NCBI RefSeq assembly: GCF_003018255.1
Contig: NZ_CP027440.1
Direction: 5' to 3' (one strand)
Source of the DNA: Escherichia coli
GTDB lineage: Bacteria > Pseudomonadota > Gammaproteobacteria > Enterobacterales > Enterobacteriaceae
Length of the DNA stretch: 64,000 nt
In this document: positions 2,070 to 28,098 of the stretch, piece after piece
Position numbering within the stretch: position 1 is the first letter of the stretch
Layout of the letters: every line of letters begins with the position of its first letter
Made by a program: the position numbers and the translations under genes
Notes under the pieces: generated by a model
What the model was told of the DNA's origin: nothing
Seen by the model: the letters and a program-made list of their open reading frames with translations, nothing else
The model's database searches: none

Positions 2070-3590
2070 TTAAAGGTGCAAAGACGCAAGACGCAGAATT
2101 TCGTTTTGCGTTGTTGTTTTTGTATCGACAATTCCGGAAACGAGACCATTGCTCATGACCAGAATACGGTCTGTTATCCCTAACAACTCAGGCATTTCAG
2201 AGGAGATAATAATAATCCCTTTGCCTTTCTTCGCCAGTTCGGCAATTAACTGATAGATCTCAAACTTCGCTCCGACATCAATACCGCGCGTCGGTTCATC
2301 GAGCATTAATATTTCTGGTTGCGTTAGTAGCCAGCGACCAATAATCACCTTTTGCTGATTACCGCCGGAGAGCGAACCAATTTGCGTCCGATGCCCCGGT
2401 GTTTTTACCCGCATCGAATCAATCACCCACTGGGTATCGCTTTTCATCCGCGAGTTATCCAGTAAACCAACTTTATTTTTGTAGTTGCGAATATTGGAAA
2501 TTAACGAGTTAAAACCGATATCCAGATAGGCATAAATTCCCGTTGAGCGGCGCTCTTCAGTTACCAGTGCAAATCCGTGGTTTATGGCTTCGTTGGCATT
2601 ATGGTTATTGATCTTTTTGCCGTGCAACGTAATGGTGCCAGCCGATTTCTCGCGAATACCAAATAACGTCTCAACAATATCGGTACGTTTCGCTCCCACC
2701 AGACCGGCTATACCGAGAATCTCCCCTTTATGCAGATCAAACGAGACATCGCGAATCGACGGCTGGCGCAGCGACGTCAGGTTACGCACTTCAAGAATCA
2801 CTTCGCCCGGCTTGTTTTCTTTGTCAGGGAAACGCTGGTTAAGAGAACGCCCAACCATCATGGCGATGATCTTGTCCATCGTCAGTCCTGCCAGCGGTTC
2901 AGTGGCGATCCACTGACCGTCGCGCAATACGGTAACTTCATCACATAACTGGAAGATTTCTTCCATTTTATGTGAGATATAAACAATACCGCAGCCGCGC
3001 TCTTTTAATTTACGAATAATAGTGAACAGATGATTGACCTCTTTTTCGGTTAACGAAGAAGTCGGTTCATCCATAATCACAATTTTCGCGTTATAGGAAA
3101 ACGCTTTGGCGATTTCGATCATCTGCATTTGCGAAACGGATAATGTGCCGACGCGCGCACGCGGATCGATATCAATATCCAGTTCATCAAAAATCGCTTT
3201 GGTTTCGCGGTACATTTTGTCCTGATCGACAAACATGCCTTTGGTGGGATATCGCCCCAGCCACATGTTGTCCATCACCGAACGTTGTAATACCAGGTTT
3301 AACTCCTGGTGTACCATCGAAATACCATTTTCCAGCGCTTCTTTGGCAGAATGGAAATCGATCTCTTTACCCTGGAATAAAATGGTGCCGGAGTCTTTTT
3401 GATAAATACCAAACAGGCATTTTAATAATGTTGATTTTCCTGCGCCGTTTTCCCCCATTAATGCATGGATAGAATGTGGCCGGACTTTTAAATTAACGTT
3501 ATCAAGTGCCTTAACACCTGGAAAAGACTTGTTGATACCGCTCATTTCCAACAAGTATTCCCCGGAAGACGGAGTCGTTGAGCTGACCAT
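2070..3590 (-). CDS. mglA: Galactose/methyl-galactoside ABC transporter ATP-binding protein (duplicated ABC domains)
   Basis: 506 aa, Walker [10 protein letters not shown], two ABC cassettes. Confidence 0.94.
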
Positions 3591-3650: not shown

Positions 3651-4649
3651 TTATTTCTTGCTGAATTCAGCCAGGTTGTCTTTATCTACGCCAACATAAG
3701 GTACGCGGACCACTTTGTTGTCGATTTTCCAGTTGGTGCCATCAGCCGCACCTTTGCCATCGGCCAGGTTTTTCGCCAGATCAAAGGTCGCTTTCGCCTG
3801 GTTGTTAGCATCGTTCAGTACGGTGCCCGCCAGTGCACCGGATTTCACCAGCGCCAGCGCTTCTGGCAGCGCATCGACGCCAAACACCGGAATGCTGGAC
3901 TTGTTGTGTGCTTTCAGTGCTTCTACCGCGCCCATTGCCATCGCATCGTTGTTGGCGATAACCACTTCGATTTTGTTGGCGTTCGGGCCAGACAGCCAGG
4001 CGTCCATCTTATCTTTCGCCTGAGCGGTATCCCACATAGCGGTATCTAACTGTAACTGTTCAGTTTTGATGCCTTTGTCGTTCAATTCTTTAATCACGTA
4101 AGTGGTACGTGCTTCTGCATCCGGATGGCCCGGCTCACCTTTCAGCAGTACGAACTGAATCTGACCGTCTTTGTTCAGATCCCAACCCTGATTCGCCGCC
4201 CAGTGTTTAGCAATCAAATCGCCCTGAATAATGCCGGACTCTTTGGAGTCAGTGCCAACGTAGTAGGCTTTGTCGTAGCTATCCAGCGCCTTACGAGACG
4301 GTTCTTTGTTGAAGAAAACCACCGGCACGTTTTGCCCACGCGCTTTCTCAATCACCGTACCCGCAGCTGCCGGGTCAACCAGGTTGATTGCCAGTGCCTT
4401 CACCCCTTTCGCCAGCAATACGTCGATCTGATCGTTCTGCTTGGACTGGTCATTCTGAGAATCATTCATCAGCAGCTGAACATCTGGCGCGGCTTTCGCA
4501 TCTTGCTCAATAGCCTTGCGCACCACAGACATAAAGTTATCGTCGTACTTATAGATTGTTACACCAATGCGAGTATCAGCAGCGTGTGCAGCGGCACCGA
4601 ATAACATGCTGGCCATCACAGCAGACAGGGTTAACACCTTCTTATTCAT
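3651..4649 (-). CDS. mglB: Periplasmic D-galactose/D-glucose-binding protein
   Basis: 332 aa with N-terminal signal peptide ([23 protein letters not shown]). Confidence 0.95.
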
Positions 4650-21664: not shown

Positions 21665-22602
21665 TAACCCGCGAGACGCTGGTATTCTTTGGCTATTTCA
21701 CTCGCCAGGATGGCGTTGTTGAACACCAGCTGGATGTTGGATTTCAGGCTGTCACCGCCGGTCAACTCAGCAACGCGCGCCAGCAGGAATGGCGTACTTT
21801 CTTTACCAATAACACCCTGCGCTTCAGCTTCAGCTACCGCCTGATCGATCGCCGCATTGATAGTGTGTTCCGGCATAGCAAACTGTTCCGGAATCGGGTT
21901 CGCTACCACGAGGCCACCGTTCAGCCCGCTTTGCCATTTCACCGCCATTGCACGGGCAATTTCGCTGGCGCTGTCGAGACGAATGCTCACGTCAAACGGG
22001 CTGGTGCGGCAGAAAAACGCAGGCAGCGCTTTGGTCTGATAGCCAATTAGCGGTACACCGAAAGTTTCTAAATATTCGGTAGTTAAGCCTAAATCGAGAA
22101 TAGATTTCGCCCCGGCACAAACGACGGTGACATTGGTGTGCGCCAGTTCTTGCAAATCGGCAGAAATATCGAAGGTATGTTCCGCCCCGCGATGCACACC
22201 ACCAATTCCCCCGGTGGCAAATACTTTAATTCCGGCAAGCGCCGCAATAATCATCGTTGAAGCAACGGTGGTTGCACCATTTTTTCCGGCGGCAACAACA
22301 AAAGGTAAATCGCGACGACTAACTTTGGTCACGTTATGCCCTTCACGACCCAGCAATTCAATTTCTTCTTTGCTTAAACCCACTTTCATCACGCCGCCAA
22401 TAATGGCGATAGTGGCAGGTACAGCGCCCTGTTTACGAATAGTTTCTTCAACTTCAATTGCGGTCTGGGCATTTTGTGGGAACGGCATCCCGTGAGAAAT
22501 AATGGTCGATTCCAGCGCCACAACCGGTTTTTTGTTTTTTAAAGCGTCCTGCACTTCCGGGGAAATTTGTAATAATTCAGGGGAAATTTTTAATTCAGAC
22601 AT
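21664..22602 (-). CDS. psuG: Pseudouridine-5'-phosphate glycosidase
   Basis: 312 aa, matches YeiN/PsuG. Confidence 0.92.
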   Translation of the reverse strand: MSELKISPELLQISPEVQDALKNKKPVVALESTIISHGMPFPQNAQTAIEVEETIRKQGAVPATIAIIGGVMKVGLSKEEIELLGREGHNVTKVSRRDLPFVVAAGKNGATTVASTMIIAALAGIKVFATGGIGGVHRGAEHTFDISADLQELAHTNVTVVCAGAKSILDLGLTTEYLETFGVPLIGYQTKALPAFFCRTSPFDVSIRLDSASEIARAMAVKWQSGLNGGLVVANPIPEQFAMPEHTINAAIDQAVAEAEAQGVIGKESTPFLLARVAELTGGDSLKSNIQLVFNNAILASEIAKEYQRLAG

Positions 22603-23531
22603 TCTGCGTTCTCCACTAACGATATAACGTTGGCAATCGATAAATCGGGGTTATTGGTGTATTCACAGGAGAGCGCCATTGACGAACATCCCTGTGCGAA
22701 ACGAACAGATTCGGCAAACGGCATTCCGTCTACCCAACACGAAGCAAGTCCCGCCATCATGGCATCGCCCGCTCCGGTAACATTAATGACATTGGTTTTG
22801 ATCGGCGCAGACCAACCACTTTCACCGCTGATATCACTGTAATAAACGCCGTCGCCGCCCATGCTCAATACCAGTCGGTTCAGGCCATGTTGATGGAACC
22901 AGGCAGCAACTTTTGCCACATCTTCACGCCCTGACAAAGCAATCCCACTCAGGGTTTCCGCTTCAAGGCGGTTTGGCTTGAGAGTGTGGATTTGATTTAG
23001 ACGGTCGCGCACTTTGACACATTTCCACGCGGAAACAGGATCGACAAATACGGGTACGTTGGCGGCATTATCCAGAATCCATGCCAGTGCCTCTTCACTG
23101 ATATTACAGTCCGCGACAATGACCTTTGCCCTCTGAATAAATTCACCGTGCTGTGCGAGATATTCAGCTGTAATAGCGTTGCTAATATTCATGTCATTTA
23201 TAGCAACCAGCATTTCACCGGTATTATCGAGTAATGATAAATAGCTCGACGTATTTTCTCCCGGCACAATCAGGCATTTATCGACATAAACACCAGATTG
23301 ATTGGTTTGCGTTAGCAGCGATTGACCATAAAAATCACTGCCTACGGCGCTCAGTAGCCAGGCTTTATTCCCCAGCAACGCCAGGTTTTGTGCAATATTG
23401 CGCCCTACTCCACCAGGCGTAAACTTTATTTTACCTGGATTTGAATCCGCATAATTTAATGATTCATGTGAATATCCGGCGACATCAATATTCGCCGAAC
23501 CTATAATTACGACATAATCCTTTTCGCGCAT
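22590..23531 (-). CDS. psuK: Pseudouridine kinase (PfkB family)
   Basis: 313 aa, PfkB motifs GGVGRNIAQNLALLG and GAGDAMMAG. Overlaps psuG by 13 nt. Confidence 0.92.
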   Translation of the reverse strand: MREKDYVVIIGSANIDVAGYSHESLNYADSNPGKIKFTPGGVGRNIAQNLALLGNKAWLLSAVGSDFYGQSLLTQTNQSGVYVDKCLIVPGENTSSYLSLLDNTGEMLVAINDMNISNAITAEYLAQHGEFIQRAKVIVADCNISEEALAWILDNAANVPVFVDPVSAWKCVKVRDRLNQIHTLKPNRLEAETLSGIALSGREDVAKVAAWFHQHGLNRLVLSMGGDGVYYSDISGESGWSAPIKTNVINVTGAGDAMMAGLASCWVDGMPFAESVRFAQGCSSMALSCEYTNNPDLSIANVISLVENAECLN

Positions 23532-23598: not shown

Positions 23599-23634
23599 TT
23601 TAAACATGTGTTCATATTTAAACATGTGCTCATA
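23599..23634. repeat. Perfect tandem 18-bp direct repeat (TTTAAACATGTG[T/C]TCATA x2) upstream of psuK
   Basis: Two adjacent units differing at one position, 68-103 bp upstream of the psuK ATG. A partial third copy follows. Confidence 0.6.
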
Positions 23635-23771
23635 GTATGCATGTTTTACGTAAAGTAAATTACCGCCAGAGATGCAAAATGGGCAGATTTGAGCAGGCTC
23701 ACAAAACGCGATTAAATGCCTGAATTATAAAAACGGGGAATTTGTGACGGAATGCACAGAACAGGAACACT

Positions 23772-23797
23772 AAAAAAGGGCAGAAATTAATCTGCCC
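23772..23797 (-). terminator. Rho-independent terminator (GGGCAGA-ttaatt-TCTGCCC plus U-run on minus strand) distal to fruA
   Basis: Stem-loop followed by six U on the minus-strand transcript. Confidence 0.6.
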
Positions 23798-23913
23798 TTG
23801 AGGAAATAACCTTAGTGTTTGATGAAAGTTTCAGGTTTCCACTAAAAGATAAAACCATTTAAATTCATAAAATTACATTCACAAACCGGTCATTCTCTTT
23901 GCGCGCATCAAAT

Positions 23914-23944
23914 GTTCCAGGGCAGGAAATTTCTGCCCTGGAAC
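23914..23944 (-). terminator. 12-bp perfect stem-loop immediately 3' of fruA (GTTCCAGGGCAG ... CTGCCCTGGAAC)
   Basis: Near-perfect 31-nt palindrome 11 nt past the fruA stop. U-tract is weak. Confidence 0.45.
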
Positions 23945-23954
23945 ACACCTTTTA

Positions 23955-25646
23955 TTACGCTGCTTTTGCTACTGCGTCCACTTCCGGACGTTTCAGGAAG
24001 GCATAGGCCAGACCCGCCACCAGCGTACCGGCAATAATGGCTACCAGGTAACCCAGTACCGGCGTAATAGCGCCAGGGATCAGCAGAACAAACAGACCAC
24101 CGTGCGGTGCCATCAGTTTCGCACCAATCGCCATTGAGATTGCGCCAGTCAGCGCCCCACCAACGATACAACACGGCAGCACACGCATCGGATCACGAGC
24201 AGCAAACGGAATTGCACCTTCCGAAATAAAGCACAGACCAAGAACCAGAGCGGCTTTGCCACCTTCCTGCTGCGCTTTGTCGAATTTGCGACGCGCCACC
24301 ATTGTTGCCAGACCCATTGCCAGCGGTGGCACCATACCTGCCGCCATAATCGCCGCCATCGGGCCATAGGTTTGAGTACTCAGCAGACCCACACCGAATG
24401 CGTACGCTGCTTTATTTACCGGACCGCCCATGTCAGTACACATCATGCCACCGAGGATCGCCCCCAGCAGAACCGCATTCGCAGTCCCCATGGTCTGCAG
24501 CCAGTGAGTCAACCCTTCGAGAATGCCAGCAACCGGTTTACCGATCAGGTAGATCATCGCCAGACCGACCACCAGACTGGAAATTAGCGGAATGATCAGG
24601 ATCGGTTTCAGCGCCTCCATACTCTGTGGCAGTTTCAGTTGCGTACTGATTAACTTCGCAATGTAACCAGCCAGGAAGCCCGCAATAATACCCCCAATGA
24701 AGCCAGAACCGGTGCTGACCGCCAGCATACCCCCAATCAGACCCGGCGTGAGACCCGGACGATCGGCAATGGAGAAGGCAATGTAACCTGCCAGTACCGG
24801 CACCATCAGCGCAAAGGCTGAACCACCACCAATCTGCATCAGCGCCGCTGCCAACGTACCCGGCTCTTTAAACGCTTCGATACCAAAAGCAAAAGAAAGC
24901 GCGATACACAGACCACCTGCAACGACCATCGGCAGCATGTAAGAGACGCCCGTCAGCAAGTGACGGTAAGCGCCTGCACCCTCTTTCTTACCTTCAGTGG
25001 TCGCTGTTTGAGCTTTGCCCGCCGGTTCATACGGCGTTGCTTCAGCAACCGCTTTATCCAGTTCCTGCGCGGTTTTCTTCAGCGCCAGACCGGTAGAGGT
25101 GCGATACATCGGTTTACCAGCAAATTTCGCCAGATCCACTTCGATATCTGCCGCCACAATCACCAGATCCGCTGCGGCTACTTCTTCAGGGGTGATCGCA
25201 TTACCCGCGCCAACAGAACCACGGGTTTCAACTTTCACCCACCAGCCACGTTTTTTCGCTTCGGTTTCAATGGCTTCAGCCGCCATAAATGTGTGTGCTA
25301 CGCCAGTCGGGCAAGCTGTCACCGCAACTACGCGTTTCGGACCGCTGGTGGCAACTGGTGCTGTCGCAGCGACCGGTGCAGTGTAAGGTTTCGCATGGCC
25401 TTTGGCTTCACTCAGGAACAGCTCAGGGTGCGCAACTGCCCGGGAAATATCGCCCAGCCAGACATTTTTACCGTTCAGCGCGCTGTCGTTCGGGATGGAA
25501 TCACCGAGAACAATCGCCATTTCAGCGTCGTTCGGATTGTCGATGATTTCCAGTTTTGCTTTTCGCGCCGCCGCGCCCAGCAGGGTCTTCGCCATATAGG
25601 CGCGTGCCTGACCGAGATTAGCGTCAATAATCAGCAGCGTTTTCAT
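23955..25646 (-). CDS. fruA: Fructose PTS enzyme IIB'BC
   Basis: 563 aa, matches E. coli FruA. Confidence 0.95.
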   Translation of the reverse strand: MKTLLIIDANLGQARAYMAKTLLGAAARKAKLEIIDNPNDAEMAIVLGDSIPNDSALNGKNVWLGDISRAVAHPELFLSEAKGHAKPYTAPVAATAPVATSGPKRVVAVTACPTGVAHTFMAAEAIETEAKKRGWWVKVETRGSVGAGNAITPEEVAAADLVIVAADIEVDLAKFAGKPMYRTSTGLALKKTAQELDKAVAEATPYEPAGKAQTATTEGKKEGAGAYRHLLTGVSYMLPMVVAGGLCIALSFAFGIEAFKEPGTLAAALMQIGGGSAFALMVPVLAGYIAFSIADRPGLTPGLIGGMLAVSTGSGFIGGIIAGFLAGYIAKLISTQLKLPQSMEALKPILIIPLISSLVVGLAMIYLIGKPVAGILEGLTHWLQTMGTANAVLLGAILGGMMCTDMGGPVNKAAYAFGVGLLSTQTYGPMAAIMAAGMVPPLAMGLATMVARRKFDKAQQEGGKAALVLGLCFISEGAIPFAARDPMRVLPCCIVGGALTGAISMAIGAKLMAPHGGLFVLLIPGAITPVLGYLVAIIAGTLVAGLAYAFLKRPEVDAVAKAA

Positions 25647-27731: not shown

Positions 27732-27752
27732 AGTTCTCCTCTCTTGCTGAAT

Positions 27753-27764
27753 TGAAACGATTCA
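27753..27764. promoter_or_regulatory. Cra (FruR) operator-like palindrome TGAAACGATTCA, 22 nt upstream of the fruB ATG
   Basis: Match to the Cra half-site TGAAAC in inverted arrangement. fruBKA is the classical Cra target. Confidence 0.6.
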
Positions 27765-27819
27765 GCTTCTATGAGAAAAAAAGCGCCAACCTGGCTTAGG
27801 GTTAAAGACAAGATCGCGC

Positions 27820-27831
27820 TGAAACGTTTCA
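27820..27831. promoter_or_regulatory. Second Cra operator-like perfect palindrome TGAAACGTTTCA
   Basis: Perfect 12-bp palindrome about 90 nt upstream of fruB. Confidence 0.6.
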
Positions 27832-28098
27832 AGAGAGCATAATACTTTTGTTTCAGCACGCAAGGAAAGCCGTAAAGTTATGAGCAAAAGTTTGATGTGC
27901 TGCACAATTTTTTGTCATTTTTCCTAATTGCTGATGGGAAAATCCGTTATCAGCAATTTCATTTCAGCAGCGTCAGCAGCCAATCAGCAACAGTGAAATG
28001 GCATTTTGATTATTCGTGGCGCTTTTGATTTCGCTGTCTGTTTATTTTCTGACAAGCAGCGTAAACTCCGCGTCTTCCTCTTCCAGTGATCGACCAGC

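Follow-up and report, generated by a model that had tools for sequence, protein, structure and literature searches.

The window analysed here, a stretch of 64,000 nucleotides of Escherichia coli DNA, carries on its minus strand the gene fruA (23955–25646), which codes for the PTS fructose IIBC and was placed from the list of open reading frames together with the RefSeq annotation of identical and orthologous E. coli loci. The next gene downstream is psuK (22590–23531), of psuKGT, which is co-directional; since both genes lie on the minus strand, the RNA strand of the region between them is the minus strand as well. The stop codon of fruA is a TAA (23955–23957), followed by a second TAA in frame, and the fruA-psuK spacer is 423 nt long, 100% identical to that of E. 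coli strain E04 and 95.6% identical to that of K-12. It contains two hairpins, which we named HP1 (proximal to the stop codon) and HP2 (distal). By folding and a scan for perfect hairpins, HP1 was located at 23912–23946, starting 8 nt past the fruA stop codon. Its RNA strand reads GUGUUCCAGGGCAG-AAAUUUC-CUGCCCUGGAACAU, with AAAUUUC as a 7 nt loop, and its conserved inner helix is CAGGGCAG/CUGCCCUG. The earlier note had described a perfect stem of 12 bp at 23914–23944, which is correct but conservative, as Watson-Crick pairing extends to 13 bp (23913–23945) and an added G-U pair makes 14 bp (23912–23946). The hairpin has a ΔG of −26.2 kcal/mol (z = −6.0 against 200 shuffles), and its 3′ tail, CAUUUGAUG, (CA)UUUGAUGC, has 3–4 U in 8 nt and no U-tract. 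HP2 (23776–23799, from the fold and a terminator scan) reads AAGGGCAGA-UUAAUU-UCUGCCCUU on the RNA strand, a 9 bp stem with five G-C pairs and a 6 nt loop (ΔG −15.5 kcal/mol, z = −4.9 in the fold). The U-tract UUUUUU comes directly after GCCC, at 23772–23777 on the minus strand, its first two U doubling as the last two stem pairs, and the predicted RNA 3′ end of the fruA transcript is 23772. A hairpin with a U-tract had been reported before at 23772–23797; the hairpin and the U6 are indeed present, but those coordinates clip two stem pairs, the stem running to 23799. Measured from start to start, the two hairpins are 142 nt apart, which leaves about 160 nt between the stop codon and HP2.

On the plus strand the hairpin cores read GGGCAGGAAATTTCTGCCC and GGGCAGAAATTAATCTGCCC, and the GGGCAG…CTGCCC core that both had been said to share is distinctive in the window: the pattern GGGCAG-N(4-10)-CTGCCC has exactly two matches in the 64 kb, at HP1 and HP2, against 0.03 expected, and two matches were reached in none of 100 shuffles. 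In an exhaustive scan the window yielded just four perfect hairpins with stems of 11 bp or more, where shuffles predict 0.2, and HP1 is the longest. Two further long perfect hairpins, at 47056–47083 and 50366–50394, comprise a two-way terminator, A6-CCCCGC…GCGGGG-T6, and an AT-rich palindrome of 11 bp, GCTAACTGATT…AATCAGTTAGC.

The consensus terminator scan called HP2 on the minus strand. The curated Term-seq data for K-12 MG1655 (Adams et al., 2021; PMC7815308, Supplementary file 1) include a minus-strand 3′ end at 2259536, in the sheet for M63 glucose at OD 0.4, with an average read count of 28,731 and with …CCTCAAGGGCAGATTATTTTCTGCCCTTTTTT|ATTG as its sequence. With K-12 fruA at 2259719–2261410, this position is the last U of the HP2 U-tract GCCCUUUUUU, 185 nt beyond the point where the fruA stop codon begins, and equals position 23772 of the window, the end having been measured at the orthologous K-12 site and not in the window's strain. 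Its distance from fruA, 183 nt, explains why the table classes it as “orphan” (PMC7815308). HP2 combines a stem and loop, an adjoining U-tract and, in K-12, an in vivo 3′ end within the U-tract, and it is the intrinsic terminator of fruBKA. A Rho-termination peak has also been reported at 2259533 (score 3.54, p = 3e-5; PMC7815308, Supplementary file 2), with low coverage (44/28 reads without the Rho inhibitor bicyclomycin and 43/97 with it), so Rho may also contribute near HP2. For the interval of HP1, 2259600–2259799, the curated lists, which are thresholded and come from media in which fruBKA is poorly expressed and not induced, hold no 3′ end on either strand in LB at OD 0.4, LB at OD 2.0 or M63 (PMC7815308). 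The earlier note had proposed that the second hairpin may be the actual terminator and that Term-seq could check this; the published K-12 data, with an end on the last U of HP2 and none listed at HP1, bear the proposal out, as do the sequence features of HP2 and its positional orthology, set out below, to the single fruA terminator found elsewhere. HP2 is like the canonical intrinsic terminators of E. coli in its G+C-rich 9 bp stem, 6 nt loop, U6 and place at the end of an operon, in having a 3′ end mapped in the U-tract and in being kept as the single fruA terminator across Enterobacteriaceae; it differs from them only by the gap of about 160 nt from the stop codon. HP1, in contrast, shares the stem with them but has neither the U-tract nor a mapped end. 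The “orphan” K-12 end at 2259536 can now be assigned to the fruBKA operon, which defines a fruA 3′ UTR of about 185 nt, and the locus illustrates that the hairpin nearest to the stop codon need not be the terminator.

We scanned the DNA past the stop codon in 80 enterobacterial fruA loci, 75 of them from outside Escherichia. Exactly one GGGCAG…CTGCCC hairpin follows fruA in 34 of these 75, starting 18–47 nt past the stop codon, and two such hairpins were found in none of them (0/75). The modal outgroup core, GGGCAGAGATTTCTCTGCCC, is present in 17 loci and usually flanked by A and T runs, and this succession of A-run, core and T-run is the classic layout of a two-way terminator. The gene order fruA-psuK is retained in 12 outgroup loci (from Citrobacter amalonaticus, C. 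sedlakii, Enterobacter soli, E. asburiae, the Klebsiella oxytoca group and Leclercia). When the fruA-psuK spacers of 18 loci were aligned, HP2 and both its flanks fell on the outgroup terminator: its 5′ flank, TTCCTCAAGGGCAGA, is identical in C. sedlakii, and the T-tract and the entire psuK upstream region align too. Escherichia has about 140 nt of extra DNA between the fruA stop codon and the aligned terminator; HP1 opens this extra segment, and the DNA between HP1 and HP2 is absent from all 12 outgroup loci with the fruA-psuK order. The ancestral flanks have been kept by HP2 and the ancestral distance to the stop codon by HP1, whose core, GGGCAGAAATTTCCTGCCC, is two edits away from the modal outgroup core, while that of HP2 is four edits away. 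The alignment thus makes HP2 the orthologue, by position, of the one fruA terminator in the outgroup and, as the Escherichia insert opens with HP1, the two hairpins are local paralogues. HP1 itself reads as a copy of the terminator that has lost its U-tract.

The suggestion in the earlier note that the hairpins are copies of a small repeat survives in part: copies they are, as local paralogues of one terminator, but there is no genome-wide family, because the 3′ UTR is single-copy. Using blastn with a word size of 11 and E up to 10, we searched 5,426 E. coli genomes for the 193 nt 3′ UTR and found it at 4,514 places in 4,230 genomes, with a median of one per genome. The core, whose recurrence had been named as the sign of a repeat family, does not recur in the 64 kb outside the two hairpins. 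These two results exclude a dispersed repeat family of the REP/BIME or MITE-like kind. HP1 and HP2 differ from the REPs of strain PA45B (locus L004) and Pluralibacter (L063) described below, and the spacer between the hairpins of the window allele is not significantly similar to the REP-pair spacer of the second Escherichia allele. Among the families of Rfam 15, searched at E up to 10, the best matches scored 10–19 bits against gathering thresholds of 43–398, which is chance level. We also considered the spacer as downstream DNA imported along with a foreign fruA end and rejected the idea, as no homologue was found in the 80 enterobacterial fruA loci.

About 1,200 of the 5,426 E. coli genomes, presumably those of phylogroup B2 (e.g., the ST131 strain PA45B; L004, 2750–2976), have a second allele, and E. 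albertii (L009) has the same arrangement. This allele diverges from the window from 27 nt inside fruA on through psuK, and consists of the stop codon, the hairpin CAUCAUCGGGGCUGAGACAUCUCUGCCCCGAUGAUG, a REP pair and AGGGCAGAAACAUCUCUGCCCU with a U-tract, the extra DNA amounting to about 170 nt; the loops of both hairpins are the non-palindromic ACAU. The spacers of the two alleles have no detectable homology, their local alignment being no better than that of shuffles, so one duplication followed by spacer replacement is indistinguishable from two independent duplications. Hairpin cores within one allele are 2–3 edits apart, whereas positional orthologues across alleles are 4–5 edits apart, and this greater likeness of the paralogues suggests local gene conversion. 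Together with the shared ACAU loop, this pattern is consistent either with paralogues that underwent gene conversion or with two duplications that happened independently, and it does not fit selection for pairing between the hairpins. The PsuK protein of the second allele is 88.5% identical to that of the window, against 95.5% for other Escherichia species, and the allele looks like an imported one, or an ancient one in common with E. albertii.

Other natural variants were also found. In Pluralibacter sp. UBA7423 (L063, approximately 3260–3420) the fruA terminator, AAAAAGGGCCG-ATTT-CGGCCCTTTTT, precedes a REP pair, after which comes a second, related hairpin, AAAGGGTCGAC-ACG-GTCGGCCCTTTTT; this layout of hairpin, REP pair and hairpin arose separately from that of Escherichia, and the insertion of a REP pair alongside a terminator hairpin may lead to duplication of the hairpin. 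Escherichia sp. MOD1-EC7003 (L005, approximately 3250–3380) has a deletion from the spacer into psuG, by which HP2 and psuK are gone; the tail of its HP1, UCAUUUUAUG, is a better U-run than in genomes that retain HP2, which hints that HP1 could return to service as a terminator. The 3′ UTR is disrupted by insertion sequences in HCP5S3_I2 (L002, approximately 1240–1950), 203740 (L088, approximately 735–1510) and CX21 (H49). An IS200 is inserted exactly past the HP2 U-tract (CCCTTTTTTAT|TG) in a natural isolate, and an IS1 lies inside the HP1-HP2 spacer of natural isolates with a 9 bp target duplication, CGGTTTGTG. The fruA 3′ UTR tolerates disruption in natural isolates.

Across four Escherichia lineages (the window, L006, L007 and L008), 15 of the 16 columns of the HP1 core arms are invariant. 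Core and loop together are invariant in 19 of 23 columns, compared with 44 of 95 spacer columns (Fisher p = 0.002), and HP2 in 22 of 24 (p = 5e-5). The immediate flanks of HP1, UAAUAAAA and UUGAUG, are invariant as well, and its outer 5′ arm is hypervariable (0/6 columns invariant). Among 12 haplotypes, 90.5% of the HP1 stem cells are paired, compared with 34–52% in slid controls, and the pair 20:44 covaries, being A-U in seven, C-G in two, G-C in one and U-G in one. It is the only pair to do so; six never vary, and the outer five are often broken in other Escherichia species. Taken together, this is modest evidence that an inner helix of about 8–9 bp has been maintained. Compensatory changes in HP1 can arise from template-switch mutation in a palindrome instead of selection, and its conservation could come from gene conversion with a selected HP2.

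The earlier note had offered the stop-proximal hairpin as a possible stabiliser or processing site, a plausible role for HP1, which is a stable hairpin of conserved structure lying ahead of the terminator and behind the coding region. Elsewhere, upstream mRNA is shielded against 3′ exonucleases by stem-loops or REP/BIME elements that sit in a 3′ UTR or separate two cistrons, the malE-malF REPs being an example. Like these protectors, HP1 is very stable, has no U-tract and sits just past the coding region, upstream of the true terminator, and a genuine REP pair fills the same interval in the second Escherichia allele; unlike them, HP1 has no REP consensus, is single-copy and is terminator-derived, and its protective role is putative. 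By inference, HP1 is most likely a 3′-exonuclease barrier that protects fruA, or a retained relic. The best explanation, in which we place moderate confidence, is that both hairpins descend, as local paralogues, from a single ancestral fruA terminator, with HP2 terminating and HP1 serving as an exonuclease barrier or surviving as a copy kept by conversion. The ancestral terminator would have had the form (A)n-GGGCAGAG-AUUU-CUCUGCCC-(U)n, and Escherichia would have gained about 140 nt between it and the fruA stop codon, beginning with the second hairpin copy, HP1. RNA polymerase would transcribe HP1 and pass it, because this very stable stem has no adjacent U-tract and would release the transcript inefficiently, and after crossing the AU-rich spacer it terminates at HP2, on whose last U the K-12 3′ end was mapped; the outcome is a 3′ UTR of about 185 nt. 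HP1 may have been retained because it blocks 3′-to-5′ exonucleases after cleavage in the spacer and so protects the fruA coding region or, alternatively, through repeated homogenisation with HP2 by gene conversion. A terminator hairpin duplicated around inserted DNA in Escherichia is a minor evolutionary point; it leaves the understanding of terminators and of the fructose operon unchanged, the region being an ordinary terminator region.

We regard it as unlikely, though worth some weight, that HP1 is a functionless relic of the duplication or insertion, whose likeness to HP2 is kept up solely by gene conversion and by repair templated on the palindrome. Such a relic would account for paralogues being closer within an allele than orthologues are across alleles, for an outer stem without one invariant column in six and a single covarying pair, and for the persistence of IS1 between HP1 and HP2 in natural strains. 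It sits badly, however, with the invariance of the inner helix and of the flanks UAAUAAAA and UUGAUG next to a spacer whose identity is down to 0.69; HP2 does not have these flanks, so conversion from HP2 cannot have supplied them. Moreover, a hairpin has been kept at the HP1 position in both of the otherwise unrelated alleles.

Tandem or double terminators exist, for example rrnB T1-T2, and the fruA region is alike in having two terminator-type hairpins in series after one operon. We think it improbable that HP1 is a weak intrinsic terminator that acts as a leaky first stop, with HP2 as the strong backup. HP1 is very stable and has UUU two nt past its stem, it occupies the position that the single terminator has in other genera, and in MOD1-EC7003, where HP2 is deleted, its tail UCAUUUUAUG is a better U-tract. 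Nevertheless, the 8 nt past the HP1 stem contain only 3–4 U, so the terminator scan did not call HP1 on the minus strand, and K-12 Term-seq, which detected the HP2 end, lists none at HP1 in three conditions. A U-tract and a mapped end are found here only at the distal hairpin, and the fruA hairpins are sequence paralogues 142 nt apart and not independent terminators.

The Escherichia-specific, AU-rich spacer (23800–23911, minus strand), which is absent from the outgroup loci, shows near-neutral evolution. In the four lineages compared above, its pairwise identity is 0.69, with 35 of 77 columns invariant, and the fourfold-degenerate sites of fruA in the same lineages are 0.69–0.84 identical, or about 0.75. 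By this comparison the spacer seems to evolve at about the neutral rate except for two complementary islands, and it may be dispensable. One invariant island, CAUUUGAUG (23906–23914, minus strand), has as its first three nt the last three of the HP1 3′ arm; the other, UUCAUCAAAC, of 9–10 nt (23817–23826, minus strand), is located approximately 17 nt upstream of HP2. The minimum-free-energy fold of the K-12 sequence pairs the two islands. We rejected this helix, UUUGAUGA/UCAUCAAA, which is paired in the K-12 fold but has both its strands invariant, and in which the common haplotype UUGGAUGA breaks one pair with no compensation. Also rejected were the long-range pairs that RNAalifold drew from seven 3′ UTRs, among them UAAUAAAA with the terminal U-tract, for which the covariation term is only −0.21. 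A candidate operator for Cra (FruR) in the spacer (23822–23834, minus strand, half-site CTGAAACTTTCAT) has one mismatch to the consensus; one-mismatch matches number 34 against 24.7 expected, so the site is not significant and probably meaningless. Its half-site reads CTGAAACGTTCAT in some strains. In strain 2014C-3057 (L086, 156–302; approximately 23716–23862 on the plus strand of the window), the RefSeq annotation has a hypothetical protein of 48 aa, WP_001300063.1, that spans HP2 on the opposite strand; the window has no open reading frame of at least 40 aa at 23716–23862, and the annotation is probably spurious.

Small RNAs that derive from 3′ UTRs and depend on Hfq are known, CpxQ, SdhX and similar ones among them, and the fruA region resembles them in its long 3′ UTR, its U-tract terminator and the short conserved island upstream. 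There is, in our estimate, only a slight chance that the spacer and HP2 are released as an RNA of this type and that HP1 marks the end of the mRNA proper; by the same slender chance, a cut in the spacer would leave HP1 capping the fruA mRNA, and the distal 100–140 nt or so would be the small RNA, with UUCAUCAAAC as its seed and the “orphan” end as its 3′ end. HP2-U6 and the AU-rich stretch on its 5′ side look like an Hfq-binding module, the “orphan” Term-seq end does lie 183 nt beyond fruA, and UUCAUCAAAC is an invariant island just upstream of HP2, within a spacer that is neutral otherwise. Yet the region differs from those of CpxQ and SdhX in being mostly neutral and replaced in the second allele, where a REP pair takes the place of the spacer, and a processed Hfq-bound species is hypothetical; IS1 disrupts the spacer in some strains, the Rfam search gave no match, and no promoter is predicted in the spacer. 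Our literature search found no paper that ties fruA to a 3′-UTR-derived small RNA.

A role for HP1 on the opposite strand, as a plus-strand terminator guarding the fruA end against antisense transcription, strikes us as very doubtful. The scan does call a terminator-like site on that strand, with the tail CACCUUUUAU, and the TAATAAAA block that forms the tail is invariant in Escherichia; but the U-run is set 4 nt away from the stem, part of the constraint on TAATAAAA comes from its being a tandem stop codon, the spacer contains no predicted plus-strand promoter, and no plus-strand Term-seq end is listed at 22597xx. Least credible of all is a regulatory switch in which an arm of HP1, by pairing with an arm of HP2, forms an antiterminator that governs how far transcription from fruA reads through into psuKGT: the arms are complementary (12 nt at 100%, 23777–23788 with 23928–23939) and psuKGT is co-directional downstream, but any two palindromes that are alike will show such complementarity, during transcription each hairpin folds locally before the arms could meet, the ACAU loops of the second allele are identical and not complementary, as expected of paralogy and not of selected pairing, and a terminating ribosome would cover just the outer, non-conserved pairs of HP1.

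Finally, we recorded several regulatory features in the vicinity. Near fruB, the Cra operator has perfect matches at 27752–27765 and 27819–27832, and between them, in the fruB leader, lies a hairpin followed by U7 (approximately 27775–27800, minus strand). In K-12, Term-seq found a strong 3′ end at 2263539 on the minus strand, 44 nt upstream of the fruB ATG, in three conditions and with an intrinsic score of 9.6 (PMC7815308), which suggests premature termination in the fruBKA leader. At the other end of the region, tandem 18-mers, TTTAAACATGTGYTCATA, lie at 23599–23634, just upstream of the predicted −35 element of psuK and overlapping it. Their paired ACATGT half-sites are kept in every genus with the fruA-psuK order, and they are probably the operator for some regulator of psuKGT, the pseudouridine genes.
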